From the NCBI GenBank assembly GCA_047967505.1, contig CM106538.1: 64,000 nt of DNA; one strand, written 5' to 3'. Origin of the DNA: Dipteris shenzhenensis (Eukaryota). Position 1 is the first letter of the stretch, and each line of letters starts with the position of its first letter. The position numbers and the translations under genes are program-made. The notes under the pieces were generated by a model. That model was not told the origin of the DNA. It saw only the letters and a list, made by a program, of their open reading frames with translations, and did no database searches. Positions 8,147-50,899 of this stretch are shown piece by piece.

Positions 8147-9758
8147 CTTAGTATAATGAACAAGAGCACTAGTAGTTGCTTTCCCTATTGATCCTCTCTC
8201 TCTGATATTTTTCCTATGAATAGCAGCATGTGAAGATAACTGAAAACAGCTGCTGAAATAGAACCCCAAACCTTACTCCGTTTGCTGATCCGACTCCTCG
8301 TCTGATGCCCTGCGTGAACACCTTCCAGGAGGGCCAAGAGTTGAGGCTGGTCAGAGGCCAACTTCTTGTCAGGCCGTTCAGAAGGGGCTGGAGTGGAGCT
8401 GTAGGAGTGCTGAAGGAGGGAGGACTGAATGAGAAAAAGAGAGGGCAGCAAGGGCCTTTTATAGGGGCTGAGGAGCCAACCAACCAGCCTGGCTGTAGCT
8501 GACTGAGTAGTCGGCTATAGCCGCCTGGCTGTTGGTCTCCTTGGCCTATAAAAGCCCGTCCTTGGCTCATTTGTAAGGGAGTTTTGTGGACAGCCTTTGC
8601 AGGCTGCCTTGCTGGCTCCCTTTTGGTCCATTGGTCAGCCTTTGGGGGGCTTGATGGGGCTCCTATCCTAGGCTATGACCTAGACCTAACCTAACCTAAG
8701 ATGGAAACACTAACTACCTACTGTTCTCCAGTGGGTACTAGTAAACAAGACTAACTGTCTTAGTTGACCTAAGGTTTAGAGATTGACTTACGTAGCTTGT
8801 GCCTAACCTTTGTAAGTCATAGAAGGCCTGCAAAGCTTTGCCTGTAACTTGAACTTTCTCCCTGCGTGTCTTTACCTTCTCTAATAAATCTGTAAGAGGG
8901 GCTGCGTGTGTTGAGAATCCATCCATGTGCGAGTTGTTGGCTTGACACAAACCTGCAAAGGATCGAATCTCTTGAAATGTCGTGGGGACAATACAACTAG
9001 TGAAAGTTTGAATCTTCTCTGGATCCAATTAATCCCTTGAGCACTAATGATGTATATTAGATACTGAATTTTTAGCAATCCAACTCACTTTTCTTTGTGT
9101 TGGGGTAGAGTTGGTTAGGGCGCACTATAGGGCGCATCGCACATCCTGAATATGTTGCTCGGCTGTAGTGGAAAAGATAAGGATATCATCACTTCCCAAT
9201 ATACTCTGCAAATACCCAAGACATCATCTTGTTGAACGTTGGTGGTGCATTCTTCAGACCAAATGGCATGACGACGAACTCGTAATGAGCTCGCTCTGTT
9301 TGGAAAGCTGTCTTTGGGATGTCAGCTTCCAAAATCTGGACTTGGTGGTAGCCACTCTTGAGGTCGATTTTTGAGAAAATTTTTGCACCATTGAGTCTTT
9401 CCAAGATATACTCGATGCGGGGCATAGGAAACTTATTACTTATTGTGAGTTTGTTGAGTGCTCTGCAGTCGACACATAATCGTGCGGACTTATCCTTCTT
9501 TGTCACAAAAGAATGGGTGCAGCAAACGGCGAAGATGATGGTCTAAGAAACCCTGCGCACAGTAATTGAGACAACTGTTGCTTTAACTCCCCCTCCATAG
9601 ACTTGGAAAGCGATACGGGAACTTACTTGGAGGTGACGAATTTGGAAGCAGATCAATGCGATGGTCTTTGGGTGTGTTGGGAGGTAGCTAGGGTGGCAGA
9701 TCATCTCGTAGCATGATGTCTTTGAACTCTTGGAGTAGATACACCATAACTTGTTCTT

Positions 9759-10357
9759 GGGTGAGTTTGGGAATGTTCGTGGATTCATCTAGGTATATGC
9801 TTCTGCTGTATTAGCGGACATGCAAATTTCACCTTGTGAAGTTTTCGTCCAAGTTGCGGCCTGCTGGTATTGCGAGAATTCTTTCTATCTTAAATGGTGC
9901 GTTGCCCTATCAGCTAGATTTTAGATTTAGATGCTCGTCTGGGAGAGACTAAAATGAAATCGTTTAGACTTCACAAGCAGTTGTAGCTTGAATGAAGAGA
10001 TTTGGACTACTTTTTGATTAGCCTTCTCCTTTAGTGCTAGCCTTCGTCATGGTTGAGTTTGCCCTTCACCTCCGGAGTGCCGACAGAAACTCAGTACAAA
10101 GACTTTGTATAAATGGATGCTCAAGTATGTGTGGGTGTGTGGATTTGTATGTGTGAGAGCATACTTTTATACTATGGTCTACACCCATTGTTGGGCGCTG
10201 ATGACGTCAGTGGGGATGTCATAGTAGCTAGTCCCTGCTATGCGTGATGGAGTTTATGGTTTTCAATCTTATGAGTGACTCTCGTGAGATTGAAACTGCA
10301 CTATGTTGTGTTTTTAGAGGATGAGTTTGGGAATGTTCCTGGATTCATCTAGGTATA
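9759..10357 (+). mobile_element. Non-coding structured-RNA retro-insertion, family A (560-bp unit plus 39-bp terminal repeat)
   Basis: 9759-9797 repeats as 10319-10357; ~23-bp TSD (9736-9758/10358-10380, 3 mismatches); removal restores gypsy pol frame PPKEQVMVDLLQEFKDI; many G.U-containing hairpins. Confidence 0.85.
9791..9916 (+). ncRNA. Conserved RNA structural motif (unclassified; candidate ribozyme), copy 1
   Basis: Shares invariant loops and compensatory stems with 16801-16920 and 17069-17188. Confidence 0.6.
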
Positions 10358-11589
10358 TAGATCCACCATAACTTGCTCCTTCGGAGGAGCAGCTTGACTG
10401 CAGTAATCTAGTAGTGGACGTAAACAAGTGCACATATGGCGCGACTTGCTTGGATACAAGAGATTAACGAAATCCTTGGTATCCTCCGATCACCGCGTAT
10501 CACGGCAGGCTTAGGTAAACCTTTCACAATGGTGAAGGTGTCCAATTCCCAATTAGGGGTCGGTACATGCTCACGGAACCACTAAATCCCAAGGATCATG
10601 TCGCATCCCATCAAAGAAGTCAGAATGAAATCCTATGTAAAAATGGCCTTCGGAAGTGAAAAAGTGAAACGGATGGCCTTATGTGTGATGTGTGTGCGCA
10701 AGCCGGGTGTGAACTTGTCCACTACAAGCTAGTGAGGCACCAAGTTGCATCCCACAGTTTTGGCAAGATGAGGGGAGATATCTTCTGAACTTCCCATATC
10801 GAACAATATAATAAACAGATGCCCATCAGTTGTGCCGTATGTCGAATGGGCATCTTTTTTTGATATGAGAAGTCACCCTCCTCCTTACCTTGAAAGACCA
10901 CTGTGGGAATGACGTCCAAAGTAGGGAAGACAACATTCGTAGCTGAGGATGGAGGCGGGGTTGGAACAACCAATACATTGGCGACGTACGAAGTAGGTGC
11001 TTTTGCAGCCTTTTTGGCAAGCCACTTCGGACAATCCTTCTTGCCGTGCCCAGCAATGTGTTGGCAATGAAAGCAATGAGCTTTTGCTCGTCAGGCTATA
11101 GGTAGCCTCCCGTAATATCCACTTTAGCCTTCTCATCTGGAGTCATCTTTGGCTTGGACTCCTTTTGACCAGAAGCCTGGCCGTCTTTCTTTTAAAACTG
11201 GTTGTCCTTCTTTTGATTTTTACCGGCTGTGGTGTTTGACTACTGTGGGGATTTGGAATCCTTCTGTACCTACTTGGGCTTTCCCCCGTTCAGCATCATC
11301 TTCGGATTTTGTGCGAGAGTCAGCACCCACTCGTAATCCGGCGGGTCGAAGCTGTGGATGGTAAATCAGATGTTGATGTGCAGTCCTCAAATGAATTGCT
11401 TCATCTTGTCGCTCTTAGACACGCCTAAGTGTTGTGCCAACGTGATGACCTTGTTACTGCACGTCAACACCGGTAAACCGTTTGGGAGAGACGAGAAAAC
11501 TCATCCTCTAAGTTAAGCATATACTGGGGCAGGAGAAAACATGCTTTGAGATCGGTCACAAATGTTGTACAAACAAAATTCGTCTTAAA

Positions 11590-16183: not shown

Positions 16184-19100
16184 GTATGATAACAAGCCTA
16201 TTTCCATGGACGGCAATTGGTACAATTTTGCATAATAGTAAAATACCTAGTACACTCATAGTGCGGTGTTGGGATCTCGTCTTGTGCGCACATTCGTTCA
16301 AGTCAGCCAGTCCACATACTTTTTTGGCCCTGCAAGGGTCCTAAGGGATGATGGTTAGTGAGTTGCTAATCAAGGGCCATAGTTTTGAAGTTAGTTCATT
16401 TGGTCAATTTGACCTTGCAAATTATGGCTAGTATGAGGCTTAAATGTGGGTTAGTAGAAGTTTAAGGGCTCCTAATGTGTTTAGGGTTTAAGGTTTTTGT
16501 TTGCTTGTGGAGGTCCTAAATGTTTTTGTCTTTTATCCTAAAGCTTTTGTCTTTTGTTAAGTATTTCTCTCTAAAGATGGAGGCTCTCTTTGTCTTTGTA
16601 TGACACCACATTTATATTAGTCTTGCCATGTCCCCACTTTTATTTAATGGCCCATCCACCACACTGTTAGAAAATACCCAACAAAGGGTACACGCAGCGG
16701 AAGACTTATAGTAATGCCCAGGAGCTCACACAATGTGTATGTGGGGTGTGGAATCACAAACTTCTAAATTTGTATGATTGGACTTATTCTAGTCTTACAA
16801 AGGTATATTTTTCTATCGCCTTAGCGGACATGCAAATTCTTTGAATTTTCGTCCAAGTGGTGATCAGCTGTTCAACTACATCGTTTTGTCTTACGCGGGT
16901 GCAGAAGCCCCAACAGCTAATCTTATTCTCATTTATTCTTATTATTATTTTAATCTTTTTGTTTATTATTTTTTTTAATTTTTAATTTTGTCTTTCTTTG
17001 TAGATTTTTTATCTTTAGAACAACAAAAATTCTAAATTTGTATGATTGGACTTATTCTAGTCTTACAAAGGTATATTTTTCTATCGCCTTAGCGGACATG
17101 CAAATTCTTTGAATTTTCGTCCAAGTGGTGATCAGCTGTTCAACTACATCGTTTTATCTTACGCGGGTGCAGAAGCCCCAATAGCTAATCTTATTCTCAT
17201 TTATTCTTATTATTATTTTAATCTTTTTGTTTATTTTTTTTTTAATTTTTAATTTTGTCTTTCTTTGTAGATTTTTGATCTTTAGAACAACAAAAATTCT
17301 AAATTTGTATGATTGGACTTATTCTAGTCTTACAAAGGTATATATAAAACTTCTTTACTTATGTGCATTCGATAGATGTGCAGACTCATCAATAGACAAT
17401 GAACCGGGCAGATAGAGAAACCACCAAAATATATTTCCGTCCAAAACTATGGACACAACAAAAGAGAGACAGATCCAGAGTCCCACCAATGGTGTGGTCC
17501 TCTGATCTTACCACAAGGTCCTTCTCCTATCAGCTGGCTATCTCTAGACTTGAGCCCGCGTGCTCCACCTCAAGCCTCTGTAGACTTTCTGTCCAGTGTG
17601 TTCTTCTCCACCTTACTGCCTGTGATTCAGCCTAGGTGGGCAGCCCCTGCCAAGCTTTGTCTGCAGCACACAGGTCCTTGTCCCACTGCTCCAACCTGCT
17701 TGTGAATGGCTGCTCCAGAAGGTATGATGATCACAACACCTTGCTGCCCTAGAAGACAGCCAAGGTCCAGCCTCTAGGAACTCAGTCTGCAGCTCACCTT
17801 CAACTCTCCTTCACCCCTAGTGTGAGACCCAAGGGAGTGGCTCCTGGCTGCTCCTGTCTGCTCCACTTTCTGCTGGATGTTGGATGAATAATGGGGCATG
17901 AAGCCCCTCCTTTTATAGGCCTAGGGGCCTGTCAAAAACCTGACCAGTCTGTCCCAATCTGGGCCGACTGGACAGACCAGGTTGGCTGGCCCAACCGACC
18001 TGGTTGGCTCAGCCCAACCAGCCCTTTAAGGGCTCACAAAACTAGGGCCCTTTGGCCCACACTTCTAGGGCTTTTGGTCCTCCAATTAAGGCAAGGTCCC
18101 AGCCCTATATAAGGGCCCTAGCCAGGCCCTTTTGGGCTGCTGCTGGAGACTCTATTGCAGGCTGTACTCCTGCCCATAGCCTCTGCCATCTGCCCTGTAT
18201 CTTTCTTCATGCAGGTGCCTTCCTGCTGCAGCATCCTTGCCTCCTGCCAGGCCTTCACCAGCCCCGTACAGCCACGTATGCATACCGTGCCCTTCCGTAC
18301 TGCTGCGCCGTCTGTCCTTGCTGGAAATCCCTGCGCAATCAGGCTGCTGCAGGTCCCTGATGTCTACATGTCTGCCCTGTACATCGGGAGCTCCATGACT
18401 TGCCAGGTACCCTTCTTTCTTCTTTTGGGGCACATCCTGCCCTAGGTCTCCCTCCCCCATGCTCTCCTCATTTTGGGGCTTACAGATGGAGAGGTGACCT
18501 TTCCAACACACACACACACACACACACCCCCCCCCCTTTTCACCTCTTTTCTCTCCTCTCTTTCACTCATCTATCTTTCCTGATATTCCTTCACCTTCTG
18601 TTGCTCTTTCTCTTTTCCTTTCCTTCCAATTTACACCTATCGTTTCCTTTCACAAGTTATTCAAAATATTTATTGAGCTACTTACACTGGGACTTATAAT
18701 GACACTCCAAAAGGCAGGGCCATAGTGGGATCCCCACCTTGTTTGTTGTAATGCATCAAAGATGAATTAAGTAGCTTTTGTCCTTACACCAAGAAAGAAT
18801 GTGGGATCATTGGTGTAAGTCTTTAGGTGTGAGCTCTGGAAAGATTTATTTTTTGGAAAATAACTAGAATTCTAGTACTACCTCATGGTGAATAGGATGT
18901 TTCAAGAGGAACTAGAGTAAGTACAATAGAAGTATATACCCTTACAATGTAATATTTGCATTAAGAGTTTGTCGGGTTAACTAGGGTCCTACAAAAATGC
19001 ATTCTAAGTATATATTATATAAGATCTAAATATCTTAGTTCTCTCCTTAAACGTGTCAAAGTGTCTCATTAAAGGTGATATTTATTTTGACATCTCACCT

Positions 19101-22100
19101 CTCTCATAGAAGCTTGCAAAGCTATTAGATGCACCTTTAGTCCCACTATTGTGTTTGGTATGGATAGTTCCTTTATTGTGTCTGAGATTAGTACTAAATC
19201 ATCTGCATAGAAATAGAAAGCTTGCAAAGTTGTTAGATGCATTTATCCACGATTGTGCTTGGTATGGATAGTTCCTTTATTGTGTCTGAGATTAGTACTA
19301 AATCATCTGCATAGAAATAGAAAGCTTGCAAAGTTGTTAGATGCATTTATCCACGATTGTGTTTGACATTGGTTGACTTTGAGAGTGAAGGAGGGGTGAG
19401 AGGGGGCTGAGAGGGAACTGAGAGAGGGAGGGCTGAGAATGAAGGGGAGGCTAGGGCTGAGAGAGAGCTGCAGAAGGGAAAAGGATGAGAAGAGCTGATA
19501 GAGGGCTGAGTGAGGGTTGAGAGAGGGCTCACCAAGGGCTGAGAGAGGCAAGGTGTGCTAACTAAGGGCTGAGTGAGGATTGAGCTGAGAGAGGCAAGGG
19601 GCTGAGATTGTGAGAGAGCAAGACTTGAGAGCTCTGGTAGACCAAAGCAAAGGCCTATCCAAAGGAGTTGCGTGCAGCGGACAGCATCTGGAGGCACCAA
19701 AAAAATGAAAACCCCCATAGCCAAAAACATCCCCAAAAAAAAAAAAGAAAAAAAAAAGGGAATTCCGAAAGTCCCAAAAAAAAACACACAAGCGCACCTT
19801 ATGATTTGAAGCGTTTCCAAAATGCCCTGAAAACTTTGAATGGCACCTTATGTTAAGGTGCTCGCACCGAATTAACCATGATGTGGATTGTGAGAAAACT
19901 AGAAAAAGCAGGTTTGGAAAAGCTATAGAAAGCTAAAAAAGCAATTTCTAGCATCTTAGTTTTTAACTGCAGTATTTAGTTAGTTATTTCTGAATAAGAA
20001 GAGTATTTTGTACTCAGTTTAATGTTGTAATTATGTCTTTTAAAAATTTAATTAATTATTCTACGTCCTTTAAAATCTTTGTCCATGACCCCTCTACCCA
20101 TGCAATTATATTAGTAGCCTAGGTTTGCTAGGCTCAGAACTTGACCTAGAGAACTCTGAAGCCATTCTTTAGACCTCGACGTGCCCTAACTAATGTGCAT
20201 GTGAGCGATCAAGGTGTTGATCCTGGTTCTGAAGATTTGCCTCACGGTTAAATACTACCTACCCTCATTAAGCCAAAGCATCGTTTCCCAACACACTGAG
20301 GCTCACCCCCAAAGCCAAACTGAAGGTGTTAGGAATAAACCATGAGAAAAACCTTGTGGATGTGTGAAGCATTATCAGTCTTGTACGGCATGTTGATAAT
20401 TGAATATAGTCAAATGACCCATAACTTCACTAATCTGAAGTACATCTTATGCACCGGATGTGACTATCATGGATACTAAAGATCCATTACCATATTGTAG
20501 ATGGTGTAAACAAGACCATACTGAAGATGGAAAAAATAGGTCATACTCGATGGTAAATTTATATTGAAGATGACAAATCACTCGGAAGGTGATAGATCAC
20601 TCTGAAGAAGATAGAGTCACACTGAAGGTGACATGGATACACCGAAGGTGTCATGGACACACTGAAGGATGGTGATCGGAGCATGTCCAAACTGTACATA
20701 ACCATGCGCACAGGATTTCTAGAAGATAACCAGCCAAGGTATGAACTCTTGTCACAAGAACTCACACAAAGAAAATGAACATATGGTCATAAGTAAAGCA
20801 AATGGAAATAGCCTTCTCCTTTAGTGCTAGCCTTTGTCATGGTTGAGTTTGCCCTTCACCTCCGGAGTGCCGACAGAAACTCAGTACGAAGACTTTGTAT
20901 AAATGGATGCTCAAGTATGTGTGGGTGTGTGGATTTGTATGTGTGAGAGCATACTTTTATACTATGGTCTACCCCCACTGTTGGGCGCTGATGACGTCAG
21001 TGGGGATGTCATAGTAGCTAGTCCCTGCTATGCGTGATGGAGTTAATGGTTTTCAATCTTATGAGTGACTATTGTGAGATTGAAACTGCACTATGTTGTG
21101 TTTTTAGAGGATGAGTTTGGGAATGTTCCTAGATTCATCTAGGTATAGGATATCTAACAATGATCCATAAATGTATCGGAGACAAAGTGTAGGCCAGCTG
21201 GCATAATGAGTACCGGCTCTTGTCAAATCAGCGATGTCACACCGTGAACTTGAGATGATATTTTTTAGCGCACACCTTTTCTTAGTTTGATACATGCACA
21301 ATATATAAACGTATATGATAATGCTTTTGATAAGATAATTTTTTTGGGTTTCTTTTTAGGTTATGCTATCATAATATGTGTGGTGTAATTTTTTATTCTT
21401 TTTTCTTATGTGCAGAAATCTTTGAAAACTGAGTATTTTCTCTGGCAAATGTACAATATTGACAAAGATATTGAGAAAACTCAAGCAGAGTTGGAGATTG
21501 ATCAGAAAAACCTTCAGGAGATTAACAAGGCGCAAGAGCAATTAGAGCTTGAAGTCAAGGAAAAAAAGAAAGAACAATCTGTTTTTACGAAGGATGCATT
21601 GCTTTGTGAAAAGAAAATTGCAAGAAAGAAGGCTGAACTGGATAAAAAGGTGTGTATGCTACTTCTGAACCCTTTTCTAAAAAAGTTTACTCTCTTGGAG
21701 TAATTGTTGTGAGCAGTCCTTTTGGCAAGGGTACGAAATCTTTGGTGGCTATGTTTATTGCTGGCTGCTCTGCTGTCTCTAATTTGGAAAGTTACTGATT
21801 CGACTTTTAAGTAAAGTAACACTATATTTGGGTACCGGTGTCTGGGGCCCTTTAAACAGACATACACACTTGTCCTTGGTTCTAAGATTGTTTGCGATCA
21901 TTACAGGTTGCCTTTTGGAATTTCTGTCATAATCTCCAAACCTTATCTTCTTAGTTTATGTGTTTGGATGGTGCAGCATCCTGAAATCCTGAAGCTGAAG
22001 GAAGAGATTACGCGGATAACACAGAAGATAAAAAATAGTGAAAAGGATTTGGAAAAGAAGAGGGAAGAGCAGAAAAAGCAGAGGAAGGAAATTTCTAAGC

Positions 22101-24430
22101 TCCAGAGAGATCTGCAAGATGTTACCGCTGCCTTAAATGAGCTTAACGAGCAAGGTAGCGAAGGAACAGGGCCACTGCAGTTGGCTGAGAGCCAGGTGCA
22201 GGAATATCATCGGATGTAAGGCTTCCATGTCTCTTTTGAAATTTGAATAATATCCAAGTTGTAAATAATTTCCATGGAATGGATTAGGTCATTTATCATA
22301 TCAGCTTTGCCATTATTTTGAAGTTCCTCAATAGGTCAAGCGATGCTTAGCACTTCTTATGAACACCCATATGGTAGTACATAGGTCGAGTCTCTTTGAG
22401 ACATTCATGTGTGTGTGTGCGCTTTTTCAACACATAATAGTTAAGACAGCATATGAAGACATACCTCTTTTTTTGGTCCTATCCCACAAGACGGCACCTC
22501 ACACACTTCTTCAGCATTGTGAAACCAGTTGCTACTGATATGATATAGTTTCTTGCTAAAAGGGAAGAAATGTACTTGCAAATGCTTATACACATCCAAA
22601 AGCTTCCATTCGATGCCATTTAGTCTTCATCCATTGCTCACAATGGTCTCAAATTCTATTTAACTTATTTTCTCTTTGGTCTTTTTCCTGGTCTGAATGG
22701 TAAGACGTAAGGTCCACTGCTTAGATGTAAGATCCATTGGACCATATGTCAAATATCTTTGGCTCCACTGTGATGCATGCGTTCTAAGCACGGGTGTTGC
22801 TGAACATGGCAGCAAAGAGGAAGCTGGTACAAAAACTGCGAGGTTGAAACAGGACAAGGAGGTGCTTGACCGACAGCAGCAAGCTGATGAGGAGGCAAAA
22901 AATAATCTGGAGGAGAATCTTCAGCAGCTTTATAATAGAGAACAGCAACTAGCTTCTCAAGAGGACCAAATGCAATCTCGTATGAAAAGACTACTTGAAA
23001 CAGTCTCAAAGAACAAAGAAGATTTTTCTCAGATTCGTACTGAGCTTAGTCAAATGCAAGACAGACACCGTAAATCAAGGTGACTGGGCAACAGCTTGCA
23101 ATTATTTCAAAGCAATGATTTAATTTCACACATTAAAGAGATTTTTAAATCCTATTTAGCAGTGTGGTTCAATCCTACAACCATTAGCTTTTCTGCGAAG
23201 GACATTTGTACTGGGTTATATGGAATTCTGTTATTCAAACCAGCATAGGAGTAGACCTGACAAATTGGATGCATTTTCTTTGCAAACAGGACAAAGTATG
23301 ATAATTTGAAAGCCAAGGTGGATGAAATTGAGAATCAGTTACGGGAGGTGAAGGCAGATAGGCGCGAAAGTGAGCGTGATGCAAAATTGTCTGAGGCTGT
23401 AGAGAGCCTTAAACGTCTCTTTGCAGGGGTATATGGCAGAATGACAGATCTTTGTCGGCCGATACAAAAGAAGTACAATCTTGCTATTACTGTGGCCATG
23501 GGTAAATTTATGGATGCTGTGGTTGTTGAGGATGAACATACTGGCAAGGAATGCATCAAGGCAAGTGTCCCAGCTTTATAAAAATTTGGGCTTACCTTTC
23601 CTGGCTTCCATTTTGCTGGCCTTTGTGTGCTGTAGTGGTTATTACTGTTTGTAAGCTGTTGGACTCAATTCTGTACACTTACTTTTGAGTCTTGACTCTA
23701 CAAAATTCTTAAAGTGGCCATTTGGAAGACTTAAAAAAGAATGATATATGAGCGATGATCATGGCATTTAGGACTCATGTAATTGATATTGGTTTTAGAG
23801 GCTTGAGATTGTCTTTTGCTGTAATGCAGTATTTGAAGGAACAGCGTCTTCCTCCACAGACGTTTATTCCGTTGCAGTCAGCTCGGGTAAAGCCTATTCA
23901 GGAGAAGTTACGCACGCTTGGAGGGACTGCCAAACTGGTGTATGATGTTATACAATATCCTTGTTTGGGCATGCGTGCTTGGTCTATCTTGTGTCATTTT
24001 GTATGTCTGTTCTCGTTACATTCGGTTGATCTTTCTTAACTGTTAGAACGTTTGATCCTGCTCTGGAAAAAGCAGTACTTTATTCTGTGGGCAATACACT
24101 TGTATGTGACATTTTAGAAGAAGCAAAAGCGTTAGCATGGGGACAGGAGCGCTATAAAGGTAAGCAATGTATAAAGTGCACAATTTGTCATCAACGTCTG
24201 TCTATTAAGGAGTGTTTGTTTTATCTTGTGTTACACGATTTATGCCCTGCAGTGGTAACACTTGATGGAATATTGCTATCAAAGTCGGGCACAATGACTG
24301 GGGGCATTAGTGGTGGAATGGAAGCTCGTTCACAAAAGTGGGATGATCGGGCAATTGAAGGTATTCTGTTTTGTTCTCAAGTCCTACCTATTGTAGCTCT
24401 ATGGCGCACATTGCTGTTTTATGTGTGTTT

Positions 24431-24461
<31 letters not shown>

Positions 24462-27400
24462 GAGAGAGGGGGGAGGTTGTCAGTGTCTTCAGAAGGCCAA
24501 AATGTCGCGGATGCCTTAATCAAGACTCCTGGGATTTATGATACCTTTGGGTCACGGTTTATTTGATCCTTGTGGGATTTTCCTATTGTGTCCTTGAAAA
24601 ATGGAGAAAGAAAGAAAGAAAGAAAGAAAGTTTATAGAAGTCTTTGAAAGACCATAGGGTCTATGAGACTTCATCATCACTCTACAATGAATATAACATA
24701 ATCAAATCACATCAGATTATGAGTGGTGTGGTGTGAACACACCCTCGGGGCACGTTTCCCTCTAGTTAGGAGATTGTTCTCCCTAGGGTTGGTATTAGGG
24801 TTCGCTTCTTTGTAGAGGATATCTTCTTAAGGGGGAGAAAATGTTACATCAATATTAGGTTAGATAATTAGGAATTAAAGACAATGGTCTTTGCTGGTTA
24901 GGCCTAAGTGGCTTAAGGGGCTCATAGTGCCCAAATAGGACATGTAGCATTGTTAGTATAACTAGATGTGTCTTCTAAGATACATTAGGTAAGTGGCCAT
25001 TGGACTTAGGGGTGGCAGATGGTACACCTAGTATGTTCTAGTAGTTGCTAGGACCCAAGTGAACTGCTGAGGCAACTTTTAGGTCATCTATTCCTATGCT
25101 TGTTGTGTGAACATGAAATCCTCCCCCATAAAAAACCGCAGAGACACTCTCATTTCTCTCCCTCTATCCCTCTCTCAACAGAGACACTAGGGCCGAGGAC
25201 AATCGTTCGGCTGGACCCCCCGAAGGTTTTTATTACTTGAGAGAAAACTGAGTACAAGAGTTCAGCGTGGAAGCTGTTCATACAAAAAATCCAAACGTGA
25301 ATAAATATTACATGAGCTCTAAGGCTCCCCTTCTTGGCAACAAGCCACTTGTCAATTTCTACATTACTTTCCTAATTACATGCCACTAAGGGCAACTCTG
25401 GAGTCTTTGAAGCACTTGGTCACGCGAATCGCCTCCTAGACTCTTGTTAGGCTCCCGTGGCGCTTAGGAAAATAACTCTTCCTAGTACCTACAACAATTA
25501 ATTAAAGCGCACCTACCATGGTACCTATTAATTGTTAGCGCTTTGCATGCAAATAACACACTGTGGACTAATTCTAGTCACGGTGGGCATCCCCACTGAA
25601 CACATGTGCACACATAACAAGTGTAAAAATACATGTTTATTCTCGAGTTGACGAAAGTCAACACTCTTGATCATAATTAAGGGCTTTGACCAAGGGTCGA
25701 GGCGCCTTAATTATAGTCAAGTCTCTCCAACCGAAGTTGGCACATCTTGGTTAATTGTAGTTAACCCTCTTGGCGCATGCCAAGTCTCGTTGGCTGAAGT
25801 CAACACTCTCTGACTGTGGTCAGCTCTGTGGTTCTTTGGTTAACTGCAGTTAACCCTCTTGGTAATAAACCAAGTCTTCCCGACTGATGTCAGGTTTATT
25901 GACCAGAGTCATATATCTTTGACCGTAGTCAATTCTTTGACCATAATTAAGACGGATAAAAACTCTTTAATTATGATCATATAAATGGTCAACTGTACTT
26001 TGACTTAGGATATTTACATTGTGGTGACATCCCCTCGGCTTCTATTCAGTTGACCTCAATTGAAAAGCTTCCTTGTAAACATCCAAAAGCTGTGGATGAT
26101 CGGATAACATGTTTTCATCCATCCACTTGGCATCTAATGCCGTATAATTCTTGAATTTTACAAGATACCTGTAAAACTCCTTGCCCTGAGGGCCTTTGCG
26201 TACAGTATGGTACACAATCTGCTCTGGCGGAAGGACCTCCTCCAGCTCATCCACTTCTGGCGGATCCTCTAATACTAGCTCTGTAGGCTCTGGCCCTTGA
26301 AATTTCTTCAGAAGACTCACATGGAATACATTGTGAATCCTCCAATGCTCTGGCAATGCCAACCTGTATGCAACTTCATTTATTCTTTCTATAACCCTGA
26401 AAGGGCCATAATACTTGGAAGATAACTTTGCATACACTTTTTGTTTGCCTTTAAACTTGTGGAGCCTAGCTTTCTCGAACTTTAAAAGTACCCAATCCCC
26501 TTCCTTGTAGAATTTGCTACTTCACTTTGACCATCTGTCTGGGGATGGAAAGACGAAGATAAATTCAAATTCGTCCCCATGTTATTAAATAAAGCTCTTT
26601 AGAATAGACTGGTCATTCTGGGATCTCGATCACTGACAATGGACTTAGGCATACCATGGTACTTAAAAATCTGCGCCATGAAAAGCTTAGCCATATGATC
26701 TGCCTTTATGGTTTTGCGAACCGGAATGAAATGAGCTTGCTTGCTGAATCTATCAATGATAGTCCAAATGCCATCATTCCTGACTTTGATCTTGGCAAAT
26801 AAAAAATGAAGTCCATTGTAATTGATGTATATCTTTCCGTATCCTAGTGCTAGAACTGTTGCTGTAATTCCTCTATGTCCAGCATAGGGAGGTGCATGGC
26901 ATTCCCCCAAAATCTTTTTCCTCATCTCTTGGGTGATGCATAGGCAGTCATCTTTCATTAGATACCCATCTTTCAGGGAATAGTGATTGGTGGACTGCCC
27001 CTCTTGCATTTGCTGTAAAATCTCACCAAAATCTGCATCATTAGCATATTGCTCCCTCATGCCTTCTAGGTCCTGATGATAAGCAATAGTCACATTGTTG
27101 ACCTGGGGTCTTCGGGACAAGGCATTTGCCACTCTGTTCCGAATTCCTGGGGTATGCACAATCTGAAAATGATACATTGACAGCATACTTGCCCATTTCA
27201 TATGCTTCTCAGAAAGCTTTGTCTGAGTTAGAAAATATCTCAGACTTTGGTGATCTATTTTAACAGTAAAATGTGCACCCAAAAGATAATGCTTCCATGT
27301 GTTCACAGCATGAACTACAGCCAACAATTCTTTTTCATAGATTCCCAGATATCTTTCAGCATCACGCAATCTTCGGCTCTCGTATGCTACTACATGTCCA

Positions 27401-30400: not shown

Positions 30401-33400
30401 CCAGTACCGGGCTGCCGTCAACTCAAGGCATATACCCACAAAGTTGCCAAGGCATCAACAACTATATTGTCCCTTTTCTGGCTACTGCAAAAAGCACTGA
30501 GTATGCATCTGATTCCCTTTTCCTGAGCACACAGGCATGCATCCCTTTACTTGTCCAAATCTCTGATTTTTCTCTGGTTTCTGCTTTTTCTGACAGTAAA
30601 TGCTTTCTCAGATAGGTGAAAACTGTTAGCAGAAACAGTCCTTGCAACTTTTTTTTTTCTTGGGGGGGGACAGTAACCAGATGGGTAACTACTGGTTACT
30701 CTAACCAGACTGACTGGTTCTGGTCTGGTTAGTCTGTGACTGGATAGTTACTGTCTGGTCAAACTGACCAGACTGGTTCTGTTATGGTCTGGTTTGGTTG
30801 GGCCAGCTAACTGGACCTCTGACCAAAGTCCAGCTAGCTAGAGTTACACTAACCACGGGTTAGCCACCTGTCTGCCACGTGTCAGTGCCATGTCAGCATC
30901 TGAGCTGGCTGCCACATGTACTGCCACATCACCTGAGTACTTCGCCACCTGGCTGCCACGTGTACTACCACGTCAGCACCACACGTGTGTGCACCACGTC
31001 ATTTGCTGAACTGCCACGTCATCTGTTGCCTGGCTAGGTGCCACATCTGAGAGGGGGAAGAGAGGTGGAAAGGGAGCAAGAGAGTGAGAGTGAGAGAGAG
31101 AGACAATAGTGCGGGTGTGAAGTGTTGAGTGAGCCACACCACAAACTCACTTAAGTTTTATTAGGATTAGGTTTACCCTATGACTGTCTTAAGACAGTCA
31201 TAGGTGTCCTAACTTTAATTCTTTAATATAAGGGTAGGCAATGTGCCTTTACCCCAACAACCTCCCACCTAAAGGCCAATGTGCCTAAAGGGGAGAAAAG
31301 AATAAAAATACAGCAATATACAGTTACTGTATACAAGACCATAAAGTAAGAATGGTCTCATCCTAATCCCATGATGTGGCGGCAATGTGCAAACCGCTCT
31401 GTAGGCAAGCTCTTAGTGAGCAAATCTGCAGGATTATCATCAGTATGTACTTTCACAAGCTCAAGACGCTTGTCTTCCAGTACCTCCCTGATAAAATGAT
31501 ATTTCACTTCTATGTGCTTGGTCTTCTGATGAAAAACCGGATTCTTTGCCAACATGATAGCACTCTGACTATCACAATGCAAAACTGGCATATCTCCTGT
31601 AATGCCCAAATCTTTCACCAGCCGAGTAAGCCATATTGCTTCCTTGCAAGCCTCAGTGGCTGCAACATATTCAGCTTCTGTGGTTGATAGTGCAACGCAT
31701 TTCTGCAACCGTGACACCCATGATATAGCACCTCCTGCAAATGTAAAAATATAACCGGTAGTAGACTTCCGGTTATCTGCATTGCCTGCATAGTCTGAAT
31801 CTGTAAAACCATGCACCAAAGCATCCTGCCTACCATAGCATATGCACAAGTCTTTGGTACCTTTGAGATACCTCAAGACACCTTTCACTGCTTCCCAATG
31901 CCGCTTGCCTGGATTTGCCATATACCTGCTGATAACTCCCACCGCAAAAGCAATATCCGGACGAGTGGCAACCATGGCATACATCAAAGATCCAACTGCA
32001 GATGCATACGGAACCTTGGCCATTTCAGCCTTATCATCATCTGATCTGGGGCTGTCCTTACTGCTGAGTTTTAAATGTGGAGGCAACGGGGTACTAATGG
32101 ACTTCCCCCCCTCCATTTTAAACCTCTGCAGTACTTTGTCAATGTACTCTTTCTGTGACAGAAACAAAAGTCCCTTGGACCTGTCACGAGTAATACGCAT
32201 GCCAAGAATATGATTTGCATCACCCAAGTCTTTCATGTCAAAAGACTGATGCAGTTGTTTCTTCAAAGCACTAATCTCATGCTGAGATTTACTGGCAATA
32301 AGCATGTCATCCACATATAGAATGAGTAGCATCAAACTGCCATCCGTTGCCCGTTTGGTGTACAAGCAATGATCGGTCTCACACCTATGATACCCTTGGG
32401 ACTGCATGAATGCATCAAACTTCTTGTACCATTCTCTTGGTGCCTGCTTGAGTCCATACAAGCTCCTTTTGAGCTTACACACAAGCTGCTCTTTCCCTTT
32501 AACAGCATATCCCTCTGGCTGACTCATATAGATCTCATCATGGAGATCTCCGTGAAGAAAAGCTGTCTTCACATCCATCTGACATAAATTCATGTCAGCA
32601 TGAGCAACAAGAGCCAACACTGCTCGCAAAGTAGTCATCTTGACTACAGGGGAAAAGATCTCATCAAAGTCAATGCCCTTCTCCTGCTTGAAGCCCTTGG
32701 CAACCAATCTGGCCTTATACCGAGGTAAATCATTTGAATCCACTTTGACTTTGTAAACCCACTTGCATGGCAAAACTTTTCTGCCTGCAGGTAACTGCAC
32801 CAAGTCCCATGTATCATTCTGAAGTAGAGAGTCCATTTCTGACTGCATGGCTTTCTCCCACTTCTTTTTCTCTGTTCTTCCCATAGCTTCCTTGAAGCTG
32901 GAAGGCTCACCACAATCTGTCAGCATGATAAAATCAGCCACATTATTGGCTCCTGGAACAAACCTGACAGGAGGCCGTTGTGCACGGGTGCTCCTCCTAA
33001 CAAACTGTTCCGGATTAGGCTGCTGTCCAGCCTGGTCTTCATGCATAACAGGTGGCTGTACCACCGTATCTGGCTGTTCTACAGCCCCATCAGTTGGCAC
33101 ATCCAGTGGTGCATCATTGGCAAAATTATCTGGCTGATTTTCAGCCTGTATACCCTCTTGAACAGGGTGATCTGCAGCAGGCTGCTGCTGCATATAAATG
33201 GGCATTCTTTGCTGTCCAACATCATCATAAATAACCCTCCTGTATTCCACAGGTTGCACGGGTTCCTTGTGTACACTATCTTCTTTAAAGATGACATCAT
33301 TGTTGCGTATAATCTTCCGTTTAACGGGATCCCATAACCTGTACCCCATTTCACCTTCATCACCATATCCCATAAAGATGCATCTGATAGACTTTGGATC

Positions 33401-36400
33401 CAGTTTGGTGCGTAGATCTTTGCGTACATGAGCAAAGCACTCGCAGCCAAAGACCCGTAAGTGCTTATATGAGGGTGGCTTGCCAGACCACACCTCCTCT
33501 GGCACTTTCAACTCCAAAGCCTTATTTGGTGACCTGTTAATAATGTGAATTGCTGTTTGCACGGCTTCTGCCCAAAAGCCATGGGGTAATGCAGCATAAG
33601 ACAACATACATCGAACCTTCTCCTGAATAGTTCGATTCATCCGCTCACTGGCACCATTTTGAGATGCATTATGAGGAGCTGTGAGTTCCTGTTTGATGCC
33701 CTTAGCTTGGCAAAACTGCACAAAAGCATGTGACACATACTCACCCCCATTATCGGATCTTAGGCATTTCAGCCTACGACCTGTCCGATTTTCAACCTGA
33801 GCGACAAATCTCTTGAAAGCATTTAGGGCATCTCCCTTATGCTTCAAGAAATATACCCACACCTTACGTGTGGCATCATCAATGAAAGTAATAAAATATT
33901 TGGCACCCCCTAGTGATAACTGTGGCATCTCACACAAATCAGTGTGCACTAGATCAAGTGGTGCTCTATTTTGGGGAGTTCTCCTCTTATGAGGAGTCAC
34001 AGAATGCTTGCCAAAAATACAATGATCACAAGTAGGCAAATCTGAAAAAGAGAGAGGCGGCAGATAACCCAAACGTGACAGTTCTTGCATTCCCATAACA
34101 GACATGTGTCCCAACCGGCTATGCCACAATGAAACCTTTGGCAGCTCGGTTATGGCAACAACATGATTACCCACACTGGAAACATAAAGAGGGTACAAGG
34201 TATCACTCTTAAAACCCTCAGCCACTACTGTCTGGCCATCAGTAATCACCCATTTGGAATCCCCAAATGTGGTGTGGTAACCACTGTCATCTAATAAGCC
34301 AGTGCTAATCAGATTTTTCTTGATTTCCGGCACATGGCGAACACCATCAAGCATAAATGACTGTCCATCAGGAAATACTATCTTTATACTGCCAATCCCT
34401 GCAATCTGACATGCATAGTTGTTCCCAAGATGAACAACTCCATGAGTACCTGTGTAGGAGGTAAACCACTCCCTATGAGGTGTAACATGAAAAGAGGCAC
34501 CTGAATCCAAGAGCCAGGTGTGCATGTCATGGCCATCAATAACCAAAGCATGTGCTATTACAGCAGAAGAGCATAAAACATCATGTATGTCACTGTCACT
34601 GTCCTCTGCTGCAACATTCACTGCATCCAATTCAACTATCTTGGCCTTGCCTTTGCCTTTGCTTGCATTTCCTGCATCTTGTGTTTCAGCCTTCTTGGCT
34701 TTCTGATCCCGTATGAACTTGAAGCACTTCGACTTCACATGTCCCTTCTTGCCACAATAAAAGCATTCAATGTCCTTTTTGCCACGGGACTGACTGCGGG
34801 ATCTGGACTTACTAGCAGATCTCCCCTTCTGCTGAGTCCTGCCTCTATCCTGTACCTGCAAAGCATTTGAAGACTTGCTGCCCGCATTATTCTTCCTGCT
34901 CATCTCCTCCATAAGGAGAGAGCTCTCTACATCAGCATAAATAAGAGTGGCATTTGAGTTTGACAGGGTGGTCTTGAAAGTGTCCCAACTCTCAGGGAGG
35001 GTACACAACAAGAAAGTGGCCTTGAACTCCTCATCAAGATTCAACCCCTGTGCAATCAGCTGTGTAAAGATAGCATTGAACTCACTCAAGTGTGAGGTCA
35101 TAGCTGTACCTTCCTTCATGCGAAGATCGACCAGCTTCTTCAGCCAATAAACCTTACTGGCTGAGCTCTTTTGGGCATACAATTCCTCTAGTCTCTGCCA
35201 TAGACCATAAGAGGTCTTTTCAGCCTGTACATTGAACACAAGAGTGTCTGAAATAGTAAGCATAATAGCTGCCCTCGCAGACAAATCAAGCTCTTCCCAA
35301 TCATCAGCTGCCATATCAGATGGCTTGACACCCTTTACCCTTATGGGCTTAGCAATCTTCTTTAACAGAAGAACATTCAAGCACTGTTCTGCCCATAATG
35401 CATAGTTATGTGCTCCTTCCAGTTTCTTTATGTTCAGAATTGAAGAATCACCTCCTCCTGATGCCATATCAGATGAGGAAAATACCTGACTCCCTGGAAG
35501 TAAAAAAGACTGAATAATAAAGTTCTGATTTCTCAGAAAAGCCTGCTCTATTCAAGAGCCAGTAGCACTCTCAAAAGTGCTGTTTTTACTGTTAGTAAAA
35601 TCTGCAGCAAAACAGTAAATGTCCCTGCAAGTACTGTACCTTCTGACAAACTGTTCTGTGCTCAAAGAGGCATAAAAAACAGTAATTTCAGACTGCTGCT
35701 GCTGCTCAACAAGAGCTTAACAGTGCATAATTATCTGACAAAACCACTCAGACTGCTGTAAACACTGCTGTACTGACTGTACTGATCACTTCTCCCACCT
35801 CAGATGAGGTATGTCACTGTCTCAAATTGCAGAAAATACTTGACTGACACCCCAAAAACAGTAAATGACTCTTCAGCCTGTCACACAAAACCTGCAACAG
35901 GAAATGGGATAAATCCCAAGCAATCACCCTTATACCAAGGGGAGAAAATGCATCTGAAGATCTCTGTTGGTAACCCAAGTGCAATCAAACAAAGTCTGGG
36001 CAAAAGCCCCTTGATCTGACACCTGAATCAAGTGGAGGACACCTCAACAATGAGGTAGCATGCAATATGAAAATCTCTCTGACTCTTGTACCTGACAATG
36101 TGCAAAGCATAGACTGCCTCTGTGTACTCAGTAACAACACAAACCACAAAGTACAAACACCCAGAAGAAAATCTTTTGAGCACTGTCAACGATGGGCAGT
36201 TAGGGACCGAGTAAACTCGATGCGCCCTGACCAAGCGTGGCTCAACTGAGATTTTCAGAGTGTGTACAAAGAATGTGACCTGCAACAAATGTCACCAAAT
36301 GCACTGCGGAAATAAAGCAAATGTGTGCTCCCTGGCTACACACTGCCTCAAGGCATAGACTGCAAACACATCTAGGCAAAAGCCCTTTGATAATTTCACT

Positions 36401-46772: not shown

Positions 46773-47417
46773 GTTGGGTGCAGTCTTATACAAGTCAAAA
46801 CATGAATGGGCGCAGATGGTCTCTTTCCACTAGCCATGGTTTCAAGACTGTATTTATGTACATAGCTGCTTTCTAAGGGAGTGGAGCTTATCTTTTTATG
46901 TATATATAGCAGCACTTGACGTTTAGTCAATTGCCTACCATGGAAACCTCAAGTGTAATTTGGATGTTAAAAATCTGGCTTTTTCCTTGTCTATAAATGG
47001 GATTCAAAAAGAGCGTATTTGCACCTCAAGCTTTGGTATTCATGGGATAATGAAATTCGATGTTGACATTAAAATATAATCTCTTAGAAATAGTGGCTAT
47101 TTTATCAATTTGCGTTAATTTGTGAAAAAAATCTCGTTTCCCAAGAGTTTTTTGCAATATTCTTTGAGGTCCCTAAAGACAATGGCTTTCAGTTTGTTTT
47201 TGGGGACCAGTTCTGTGCATTCTTTATTGGAGTTGGAGTGCCAAGCCTTATAAATAGCATCCCTTTAAGGGACTTTTCTATTCTAATGTATCTTTTTAAT
47301 TCATTTTCTCGCTCATGAACGGCTATTCTCACCTAATGGCTTGGTTAACCTAGCTAACTTTGCATGTTGGTTCATCTATGTACTTTCCTCCATTTGGGCT
47401 TTTTTAACATGGTGACT

Positions 47418-47650
47418 TGATTTAGCTGCAAGAAATCACGACTCATCTAGAGGATTGGCTTACAATTGCATCGAAAGAACAATGCAATCAAGACTTGTTG
47501 ATTTTCATCTTCACATGACTCAATTGATCGGAGCTTTTTTGATATGGAAACTTGATTTAGGTGCAAGAAATCATACGACTCATCTAGAGGATTGGTTTAA
47601 AATTGCATCGAAAGAACAGTGCAATCAGGACCGGTTGATTTTCATCTTCA
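47418..47650. repeat. Direct duplication, ~135-bp period
   Basis: TGATTTAG.TGCAAGAAATCA..GACTCATCTAGAGGATTGG..TTGATTTTCATCTTCA present twice. Confidence 0.75.
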
Positions 47651-48331: not shown

Positions 48332-50507
48332 GGTCTTTGTAATGTCAATAAGTGGAGACTTTTTTGGCATTATGTACATAGAATGCATCTCGATGTAATT
48401 TCTTTGCAGGAACACAACCAACACTTCTTGGTTGGCCAGTAAGGCCACTTCGCTGGTTATGACATATTTTATGCTGGTACAATGCACTTTTTGGGGGTAT
48501 GCATACTGGTGAAACATGATATGCAGTCCACGGTTGCTTACAATGACCCCCAGGGTCGCTGGATGGTGATCAGATGCACCTATCATGCTGATCTTTATGA
48601 AATAGCATCTGTCTATGCCTCTCAAACTTCTGCGACAAGAGCTCGAATGTGGGCCTCCCTCAAACAATATCCATGGCTGTCTAATGCCTTTTTGTGTGGA
48701 GACTTCAATAACTCGCCTGCCATTCAAGACAACACCACCCATCGTTCTCACATGATCCCCACTGAGCTTCGACATTGGGAGGATATGCCTTCTTTCTTGC
48801 ATGCAGAAGATTTATGGCTCTCAACAAGGGATAGAGATATGGGCTATACATACCATCACAATGCCTTTACTCATTACTGGGCTCGACTTGACAGATGGTA
48901 TATGTTGCATGCTCAGCAGTATGCTAGTTTCACATGTGCACTATGGGTTAATCATTCCCTTTTGTTATCTGATCACTTCCAGTATGCTTGACATTATCTA
49001 TAGCACGTTTGACAGATATGCCTTTTTTTGGTCTTCGCCTACTCCATGTTAATAGTGCTTATTTGCTTCATCAACAATTTCAGAACATGGTGAGAGTGGC
49101 TGTCCGCCCCCTCCTCTTACATGCTCAGGAGGACATGGATTTCGCTTGGATCAGTCTTGCCCATCGTTTGTAGGCTGTCATTCAAGATTATGGACGGAGT
49201 TACATGGGAGACCTCAGGCTTAAGCTGAAATGGGCTCAATCTCACAAGCAACAAATGGATGTAATCAGCTCTTATAGGCAGCTCACCTCCTCTGAACAGG
49301 ATTCTTGTACTTATGCGGTTCATATCATCCATCAAAACGATCTTCGCAAATTAAAGAAGTGGCAAATCCGAGCTCGCATGAAACCCCTTTTGGATAAGGA
49401 CTGCTCCTCCAAAGCCTTCTTCAAAAGCCTGCATGCGGATAGGCGAAATGAGGATATTTGCAGGATCAAGCAAGATGATGGCACCTGGACTACCTCCAAA
49501 TCGGAATTGGAATTGCAATGTTCTAGGAGCAAGGCGTTTGACTCGCCTCTTGCCTTACAGGCTCCTATTAAAGCATATAATCTTATGAAATTGGGCATAA
49601 GATTTGTCGGAGATGTTGTGGATCAACACGGTTATGTGCTTTCATTTCCACAAGCTTGCAGGACATTCCCCTTGGGTCTGCATCATAGGCCCATTTGGAG
49701 AATACTTACAACTATGTTGCAGCCATTTGTTCCTGTTCCTCCACTGTTTGTACAGGACAGATTACTGGATTGGAATTTGACTTCCTTATCTCCTGCTACC
49801 TGTTCACTTTGAATGCATAATCTGGCCTCCTCGATGGTTTACAGATTTCTTCTTCCACCGCCATGGATTGATAAGCATGCCAACACTATTTGGAATTTGG
49901 ATAGGCCTTTATCTTGGTGGCAATCACAACTCAAAAAAATTTGGAAAGCTAAATTGCCATTGCAACAGAGGCTTTTCTTTTGGAGATGTATAGTGGGAGC
50001 TTTTTCCACTGGGGTGAAATTGACAGCACGTCGCATTGCTTCCCCTTCTTGCCCCCGTTGCTCTCATCACCGAGAGACAGTTCCCCATTTGTTATGGTCT
50101 TGCCCGCACTCTCAAATATTGATCACTCATGTCTCTCATTTGCTGTGGCTTCGGTTTTCCTCTATCAAATTCGGGAAACTCTTCTGGATGTTTGGATGTT
50201 TCTCATCTCAGATGTCTCCATTCCTCCTTTTCTTTCACTGGGCTCGTTTTTGGGTTCTATGGACTATTTGGACGCAGAGATTGCATTCTAGGATGGGACA
50301 ATAGTTTCCTCAGGCATATGCTTTCTTCAGAATGTCCCTCAAGCAATCTTTATATGACAGTTATGCTGCGAGGGACTTGGATGCTACTAGCCTTGAAGTG
50401 TTTTTTGATTGTTTTTGAGTTCTTCCATTAGGCTCTCTTTTGGAGTCTAATGTCATGTACATTGATTTCATGTTAATAATATAGTTACTGGTTTCACAAA
50501 AAAAAAA
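48332..50507 (+). mobile_element. L1-clade LINE, 5'-truncated and lacking the RT domain
   Basis: APE motifs SLQEH, GDFN, RLDR, SDH; zf-RVT (C..C...ETV.HLLW.C); poly(A) to 50507; 17-bp TSD GTGTGTCGATACAGGTA (48315-48331/50508-50524). Confidence 0.9.
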
Positions 50508-50899
50508 GTGTGTCGATACAGGTATGGATATGTATTAGTAAACACATGCACATGTGTGTGCGCGAGCGCACACGCAATCATTTGCATTTTGAGTGATTTA
50601 TATACAGAAACATCATTTTCATGCGATGACGAATGCAATCATTGATAAATCTTTTCGATATAAAAAGCTTGGAGACTAGCAATCTATTGTTGGTAGTATT
50701 CACAATATTGCCAGTAATAAATTTTGTGGCAAATGTACATTTACTGCTAGTACAAGGACCATTATCACCATTAAATGCCATTGCTACCAATGGCAAAATT
50801 AGTGAGAAATTGAACTATTATAATAGTACTGTTATCAATGGTAATGGGACTATTATGCCGGTTGGGGAAAAAAAGAAGACAAAAAGAATGGTAAATAAA

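Follow-up and report, generated by a model that had tools for sequence, protein, structure and literature searches.

Results

A more-than-unit-length insert in a decayed gypsy pol gene

We analysed a stretch of 64,000 nucleotides from the fern Dipteris shenzhenensis (GenBank assembly GCA_047967505.1, contig CM106538.1), hereafter the window, which is a transposon-rich part of a large fern genome. At 9759-10357 of this window, a decayed Ty3/gypsy pol gene on the minus strand is interrupted between its protease and reverse transcriptase (RT) parts by an insert of 599 bp. The insert amounts to 1.07 copies (599/560) of a 560-bp non-coding unit, as a first-pass annotation of the same letters had proposed.

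The two ends of the insert carry the same sequence. A repeat search finds a direct repeat at 9759-9798 and 10319-10358, spaced by 560 nt, with 38 of its 40 nt (95%) identical, where 39 bp had been noted before. The insert is also flanked by a second direct repeat (9736-9756 and 10358-10378), identical at 19 of 21 positions (90%) in the repeat search and at 20 of 23 when read by eye, in keeping with the proposed target-site duplication (TSD) of about 23 bp. Base 10358 (T) can be assigned either to the element or to the right flank, and the length of the TSD is therefore given here as 21-23 bp. In local alignments of 40 x 40 nt, the score of this flank repeat (17) was met by a fraction of 0.0005 of 2000 random window pairs.

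Once the insert and one flank copy are removed, the host frame runs on through a typical pre-RT linker, which bears out the earlier claim that the frame is restored. Furthermore, in a paralogous gypsy copy within the window, the corresponding peptide is unbroken at the insertion site at the protein level. This identifies the flank repeat as a target-site duplication, as opposed to a repeat of the host. We note that the protein-level match to this other gypsy copy lies downstream of the site, and that the unbroken peptide was read separately. No DNA-level empty site was found in the window's other gypsy copies, which are too diverged. We find that the insert is a single integration of the 560-nt unit (9799-10358, + strand) into the protease-RT linker of a dead Ty3/gypsy element.

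The insert itself lacks the hallmarks of several common classes of transposon. No open reading frame of at least 60 aa lies entirely within it, and a minus-strand frame (9543-9788) reaches its first 30 bases from the host side. The repeat search reveals no terminal inverted repeats (TIRs), and inspection of the sequence reveals neither poly(A) nor TG..CA ends; these absences, listed in the first-pass annotation, are thus confirmed. The insert opens with GG.. and closes with ..GGTATA. We rejected a long terminal repeat (LTR) retrotransposon or a terminal-repeat retrotransposon in miniature, as well as a TIR transposon or a miniature inverted-repeat transposable element, given the missing TG..CA ends, the missing TIRs and the TSD of 21-23 bp. 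Helitrons have a 5' TC and a 3' CTRR end and insert between A and T without target duplication; both the TSD and the termini of the insert rule against this class. A + strand intron with GTGAGT (9761) and TAG (10357) as its ends was likewise rejected: neither the 3' block nor the second copy nor the sister family described below conserves its GT, and the host gene lies on the opposite strand.

At 10198-10209, the unit contains CTGATGACGTCA, which includes the perfect palindrome TGACGTCA, a bZIP/CRE-type site also present in the second copy (20988-20999). This palindrome could serve as a promoter element of the 560-bp unit.

Further copies and a 268-bp sister family

Two further insertions in the window are related to this element (Table 1). 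The copy at 20807-21147 belongs to the same family; it begins only ~220 nt into the unit and stops on the same 3' terminal base as the insert. The other belongs to a sister family with a unit of 268 bp, and its array is laid out as the last ~43-47 nt of its own unit followed by two full units. It carries the same AGGTATAT 3' end as the 560-bp family. The sole flank repeat of this array is the 8-bp AAACTTCT, found at its 5' boundary and 3 nt from its 3' boundary. The 5' boundary is blurred by a microhomology of 4 nt and by some A-rich likeness farther upstream.

Table 1. Coordinates in the window of the insert, its parts, its host gene and its relatives
Feature	Position	Strand	Basis
Left TSD copy (host gypsy pol sequence)	9736..9758		19/21 by tool, 20/23 by eye against 10358-10380
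5' tail, repeating the unit's last 40 nt (hairpin + AGGTATAT)	9759..9798	+	38/40 identical to 10319-10358
One complete 560-bp non-coding unit	9799..10358	+	No open reading frame; RNA fold z -2.83
Three-helix module at unit start, common to the 268-bp family	9805..9860	+	Alignment and folding
3' terminal hairpin (14 pairs, several G-U), then fixed end AGGTATA(T)	10319..10358	+	RNA folding
Right TSD copy	10358..10380		Repeat search, flank test
RT part of decayed host Ty3/gypsy pol	9189..9542	-	PF00078, E 1.3e-19
Second 560-family copy, 5'-truncated, ending ..CTAGGTATA	20807..21147	+	nhmmer placement; 97.6% identity over 339 nt to 10019-10357 (BLAST)
Sister family, 268-bp unit, 2.2 head-to-tail copies, ending ..AAAGGTATAT	16758..17343	+	TRF: period 268, 98% matches

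Homology between the two families, as delimited by nhmmer, is limited to about 130 nt (9785-9917 against 16795-16920). This shared stretch consists of the unit end and the first ~120 nt of the unit, and it is unbroken over the unit junction. Within it, an 18-nt core is identical in both families and occurs three times in the window, against 0.08 occurrences expected. The 5' ends of the two full-length insertions lie ~3-8 alignment columns apart, at the base of the conserved hairpin. These near-coincident starts point to defined ends with terminal redundancy rather than to a circle copied up to an arbitrary point.

All three insertions share a fixed 3' end (10357/8, 21147 and 17343), and of the two 560-family copies one is 5'-truncated. 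A target duplication is clear at one insertion, possible at another and absent from the third. We also observe a likeness between the opening letters of the 3' flanks (TAGATA.., ATATA.. and GGATAT..) and the 3' end of the element itself (..TAGGTATAT).

Three other tandem arrays in the window (19106-19365, 47398-47650 and 59574-59729), with periods of 104, 137 and 79 bp and about 2-2.5 copies each, are without the core motif of the 560/268 families.

RNA structure at the unit junction

The complete 560-nt unit folds, as + strand RNA, at -176.2 kcal/mol (z -2.83), and the minus strand reaches a z of -2.20, both moderately better than shuffles. All three hairpins named in the first-pass annotation are present in the minimum-energy fold, in a unit whose fold is only moderately above shuffles.

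As + strand RNA, the 5' tail (9759-9798) folds at -16.1 kcal/mol (z -5.6) and the 3' hairpin (10319-10358) at -16.8 kcal/mol (z -4.0), compared with -6.4 kcal/mol (z -1.5) for the minus strand of the latter and -3.6 kcal/mol for its DNA. The tail hairpin of the 268 family behaves in the same manner, with -11.6 kcal/mol (z -3.4) as + strand RNA, -3.7 kcal/mol (z -0.55) on the minus strand and -4.0 kcal/mol as DNA. In both families, the tail hairpin is followed by AGGUAUAU and its stem relies on G-U pairs, while the hairpin sequences themselves are largely dissimilar.

Both families also form the same three-helix stem at the start of the unit (9805-9860 and 16815-16865). Across the 19 pairs of this 5' module, 97% of the alignment cells pair, a share that falls to 26-47% once the partners are shifted by 1-3 columns. 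The six pairs of the outer helix all differ between the families and all six still pair, with both sides changed in three and a single side in the other three, which is suggestive of a helix maintained by compensatory changes. Both modelled structures, the tail hairpin and the 5' module, are stable only as + strand RNA, and taken together they suggest that the + strand functions as RNA.

Copies in other sequencing data

Logan contigs of four runs (X1, X2, X8 and X11, under four organism labels) were aligned to 9300-10800 of the window. Pieces of the insert are present in the contigs of all four, at 85-99% likeness. In X2, 48 contigs extend beyond 10359 into letters that disagree with one another (agreement 0.39), as expected of a true 3' end at many loci.

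The contigs also cover the junctions. Record 17 of X2 spans 9763-9874, the tail-to-unit junction, and another X2 contig joins 10224 to 9794. A contig of X8 leads from 10217 to 9762 by way of 28 diverged letters and extends for at least 45 letters to either side; from the geometry of this joint, the contig runs through the 40-nt block into the unit start. Junction-spanning sequences, which had been proposed as a check on a circular RNA, thus occur in X8 and X2, but they are equally expected from tandem DNA. Head-to-tail junctions are thus present in further organisms, whether as tandem DNA or in some other form. With the sister family present at 2.2 units, and with the 3' block joined to the unit start in contigs of other organisms, a template longer than one unit is a property of the family and not an accident of one locus.

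In each of X1, X2 and X8, one contig continues past 10359 with 14-28 unrelated letters, after which the last 17-63 nt of the element reappear, as if very short 3' fragments had been inserted beside a full 3' end.

In the run index, 20 rows from 14 studies contain part of the stretch, every share being at most 0.45; these rows were not used as evidence on expression or habitat. Summed word depth is orders of magnitude greater on 9759-10370 than on the flanks in all four runs, is near zero in the bin 10371-10421 (0, 2.88, 0 and 0), and climbs from 5' to 3' in X1, X8 and X11 but not in X2. Since contig depth cannot rank parts of the stretch and an uncovered part proves nothing, we did not count these patterns as evidence. 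Two scans of metagenome contigs, with a 25-nt pattern from the 3' block and with the core motif allowing a gap, returned no match. Two scans of viral contigs returned none and one, with no real copy among them: the single match (L001) ends after the 18-nt motif and two bases, within unrelated sequence, and was rejected as chance.

Other features of the window

Pfam searches of the 129 frames of at least 90 aa in the window detect only gypsy, copia, L1-like long interspersed nuclear element (LINE) and SMC domains. Exons of an SMC1-like cohesin gene lie at 21389-24563 and 45710-46617 (+), with SMC hinge and SMC_N domains, and are separated by an intron of more than 20 kb that is filled with transposons. 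The truncated copy of the 560 family is directly upstream of the first of them. For the exon at 46312-46617, the nearest named proteins are from Adiantum (79%), followed by Taxus and Selaginella (72%). At 31358-35551 (-), a Ty1/copia polyprotein retains an unbroken frame of 1397 aa with all usual domains; its best database relatives are unnamed and 54-60% identical.

A fragment of an L1-like LINE occupies 48334-50508 (+), with a zf-RVT domain at 49813-50301, a poly(A) and a perfect 16-bp TSD, TGTGTCGATACAGGTA. Target-primed reverse transcription with long duplications therefore operates in this genome.

Discussion

A proposed retroposon copied from a template longer than one unit

We consider the insert to be a non-autonomous, non-coding retroposon that was integrated by target-primed reverse transcription, with synthesis starting at a fixed 3' site and the template exceeding one unit in length, and give this account, taken as a whole, about an even chance of being correct. 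The fixed 3' end, the truncated copy, the long TSD, the homologously placed tails, the multimers, the structured cis-acting core and the likeness of the 3' flanks to the element's end make RNA-mediated, target-primed reverse transcription the simplest account of the data.

In such a mechanism, the transposition intermediate would be a + strand RNA. A reverse transcriptase acting in trans would recognise its 3' hairpin and prime cDNA synthesis at a fixed site on the nicked target. The over-length template could arise from a partial tandem transcribed from its upstream tail, with read-through to the next 3' site, or from an enzyme that, on reaching the 5' end of one RNA, jumps to the 3' end of a second; a circular template would be a third and less likely origin. 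Every new copy made of a tail and a unit would again be a competent source.

Several points weigh against the retroposon reading. All statements at the level of insertions rest on the three insertions in the window. Of these, the copy at 20807-21147 reveals no clear target duplication, its best flank match being not above chance (p about 0.1), and the AAACTTCT repeat beside the 268-bp array is not significant alone (p about 0.1). Within the insert, the repeats disagree at 5 of 63 positions, whereas copy 1 and copy 2 differ at only 8 of 339; this excess could result from small numbers, from errors during insertion, or from a tail copied from another RNA. The structure statistics derive from two distinct sequences, and 27 of 500 shuffles score as well. 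None of the 20 rows in the run index is on record as RNA, X8 and X11 being only guessed to be so. With regard to Penelope-like elements, which provide the closest parallel, the repeated part of 40-47 nt is far from the hundreds of nucleotides of usual pseudo-LTRs, and the hammerhead of canonical members has no counterpart here according to Rfam. Among the 129 frames, Pfam finds no Penelope-type reverse transcriptase, GIY-YIG or Rep domain, so that, unlike for Penelope-like elements, no reverse transcriptase/GIY-YIG partner is found in the window. Lastly, PMC8557442 names green algae, Chara and Selaginella, and a text search of that paper for 'fern' returns no mention of those plants.

Alternative origins

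The first-pass annotation had suggested that the more-than-unit-length copy came from reverse transcription around a circular RNA or along a tandem precursor. The more-than-unit-length part of this reading stands, since the template exceeds one unit and does so in the 268-bp family as well; the circle itself finds no such backing, with no Rfam ribozyme in the element and no run on record as RNA among those that contain it. The tandem precursor explains the same data and is a known habit of Penelope-like elements (PMC8557442). In its explicit form, the circle model posits a unit-length RNA circle of 560 or 268 nt, similar to that of a retrozyme without a known ribozyme, from which reverse transcription starts at a fixed point just after the hairpin, copies 1.07 or 2.2 turns and stops once the hairpin has been copied again. 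Such a model, which we deem unlikely, would account for two families inserted at more than unit length, for a conserved core unbroken over the unit junction, for tails that end at the hairpin base in both families and for X8 and X2 contigs that span the junction, the last being equally expected from tandem DNA. It also has precedents in retrozymes (PMC4918200) and in animal non-LTR retrozymes linked to Penelope-like elements (bioRxiv 10.64898/2026.07.22.740005). Against it, no RNA circle is observed, and no hammerhead, hepatitis delta virus (HDV)-like, twister, hairpin or other Rfam ribozyme is detected in either family at E up to 10, nor does any ribozyme reach the gathering score anywhere in the window. 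A hammerhead candidate, CUGAUGA at 10198-10204, was rejected for want of a fitting GAAA or stem II, in agreement with Rfam, and an inspection by eye for an HDV-like P1 helix after the junction revealed no pairing common to both families. The GTGAGT at the start of the tail is absent from the 3' counterpart of the tail, from copy 2 and from the sister family; signals for back-splicing are consequently not conserved. The farthest-reaching version of this idea, which we hold to be doubtful, is a fern family of small, protein-less, structured RNAs (268 and 560 nt) that persist as circles or self-renewing multimers without a known ribozyme and enter the genome by rolling-circle reverse transcription from a fixed start beside the hairpin. 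Under this view, the junction module (3' hairpin, AGGUAUAU and three-helix element) would act as a novel signal for processing or circularisation, and perhaps as a novel self-cleaving motif.

A template of DNA rather than RNA would be used if the insert were a rolling-circle (HUH/Rep) element, for instance a non-autonomous relative of Replitrons, whose repeats and hairpin are recognised as single-stranded DNA and whose multimers come from an over-replicated circle. Replitrons possess short direct terminal repeats, a hairpin at the right end and, in Chlamydomonas, target duplications that vary in length; their copies number in the hundreds in ferns and lycophytes, where non-autonomous and autonomous forms both count among Replitrons and the former may outnumber the latter (PMC10288648). 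The host examined here is a fern. However, the hairpins of the present families depend on G-U pairs, so that they are weak as DNA (-3.6 and -4.0 kcal/mol) and strong as + strand RNA, and most Replitrons are without target duplication (PMC10288648). Replitron right ends are also described as fuzzy and left ends as precise, whereas the + strand of the present elements has a precise right end in 3/3 insertions and one truncated left end, a point weakened if the element is read on the opposite strand, where the left end becomes the fixed one. Four motif strings taken from the element are absent from the six supplementary files of PMC10288648, where line breaks could hide a match, and the window contains no Rep-like domain according to Pfam, which may lack the Replitron Rep. 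On balance, we regard this origin as improbable.

An RNA template would be retained, and any Penelope-like role dispensed with, if the insert were a passenger, similar to a short interspersed nuclear element (SINE), of a LINE of the RTE, L2 or CR1 type, with tails and multimers formed by end-to-end template jumps. These so-called stringent LINEs recognise a 3' stem-loop. A 3' stem-loop, a short fixed tail, 5' truncation, a long TSD and a 3' flank resembling the element's end would all fit, and a LINE is active in this genome. Yet a single LINE was detected, of L1-like type with a terminal poly(A), and it has no similarity to the element, including at its 3' end. Searches with Rfam (E up to 10) and ARAGORN reveal no tRNA, 5S or 7SL-like head; Rfam returns no family of any kind at this threshold in either element, nor any at the gathering score across the window, and ARAGORN no tRNA-like sequence. 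Runs of T5 or longer in both units argue against transcription by RNA polymerase III, whose A and B boxes, sought by eye, are not kept between the families. Sporadic template jumps would hardly be expected to leave a tail at the homologous place in both families, and the chances of such a passenger appear low to us. Least credible of all, and in our estimation very improbable, is an origin without any special template, in which a plain unit-length insertion was followed by local duplication through slippage or unequal crossing-over, or in which the ends of the insert match by coincidence. The tail and the 3' block could conceivably recombine by unequal exchange and make 2.x from 1.x copies, and the insertions number only three. 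But the 40-nt tail sits within the target duplication, directly against it, the second family has the same build at the homologous place, and the tail-to-unit junction recurs in the contigs of another organism. Moreover, no simple mechanism would carry the 3' block to the 5' end over 520 nt and leave the intervening part unduplicated.

Implications

If the retroposon reading is true, the window provides a compact retroposon of the form 'tail plus unit' from a fern genome. Its whole cis-acting part would be about 130 nt long, comprising two directly testable RNA structures, and is the sole part common to the two families. It could thereby help to define what reverse transcriptases of this kind recognise, and could aid the annotation of fern repeats that are otherwise called unknown repeats or satellites. 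Should the template instead be circular, retrozyme-like biology would extend to an element without a hammerhead ribozyme. Literature searches for Penelope-like or SINE-like elements in ferns yielded no description of this family.

Comparison with known systems

Resemblances to several groups of small elements can be traced. Like SINEs with a LINE-like 3' stem-loop, the insert is non-coding and combines a 3' stem-loop and a short fixed tail with 5' truncation and a long TSD; unlike SINEs, it has no head derived from a small RNA, no poly(A) or simple-repeat tail, internal T-runs and terminally redundant ends. Plant LTR retrozymes reportedly carry LTRs of ~350 bp with a hammerhead, a primer-binding site, a polypurine tract and a target duplication of ~4 bp. 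The insert differs in all of these features, with a terminal repeat of 40 nt, a TSD of 21-23 bp and neither a primer-binding site nor a polypurine tract. Viewed more broadly, retrozymes are likewise small, non-coding, structured, non-autonomous and present at more than unit length or in tandem, and a circular RNA has been proposed for them (PMC4918200; bioRxiv 10.64898/2026.07.22.740005). In contrast to both the LTR and the non-LTR types, Rfam detects no hammerhead here, while the tandem or partial-tandem build is present. Replitrons share direct terminal repeats and a subterminal hairpin with the insert, but in Replitrons these repeats are short (6 bp in the founding member) and the right ends fuzzy, compared with the exact 3' end and RNA-type structures found here (PMC10288648).

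The closest system appears to be the non-autonomous Penelope-like elements, such as MRC1 of Chlamydomonas, of the Chlamys clade. Penelope-like elements undergo 5' truncation and form partial tandems that create pseudo-LTRs, with a tail of 30-40 bp, and their non-autonomous forms include multicopy head-to-tail insertions with the same 3' end as the autonomous element (PMC8557442). The tail has been attributed to internal initiation of reverse transcription (PMC11167929). Pseudo-LTRs start with palindromes and can alone mobilise foreign inserts (PMC3846280); those of canonical members carry a hammerhead, whereas Naiad and most Chlamys elements do not (PMC8557442). Some differences concern the target: the TSD of 21-23 bp exceeds the 8-10 bp of rotifer Penelope-like elements, and no microsatellite bias is seen at the insertion site. 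Given the lack of a hammerhead ribozyme, the very short repeated part and the absence of a partner enzyme from the window, we do not claim membership of the group. Rather, our analysis suggests that the insert, in its partial-tandem build, resembles a Penelope-like element with its pseudo-LTR and 30-40-bp tail, and that it may work like one. As in these elements, a partial copy of the element's own 3' part precedes the full unit (a 40-nt tail and one unit in one family, ~43-47 nt and two units in the other), and the 268-bp array is a multicopy head-to-tail insertion. As in these elements too, 5' truncation is combined with a fixed 3' end, target duplications occur, the repeated part starts with a palindrome, and the cis-acting part is placed at the junction.

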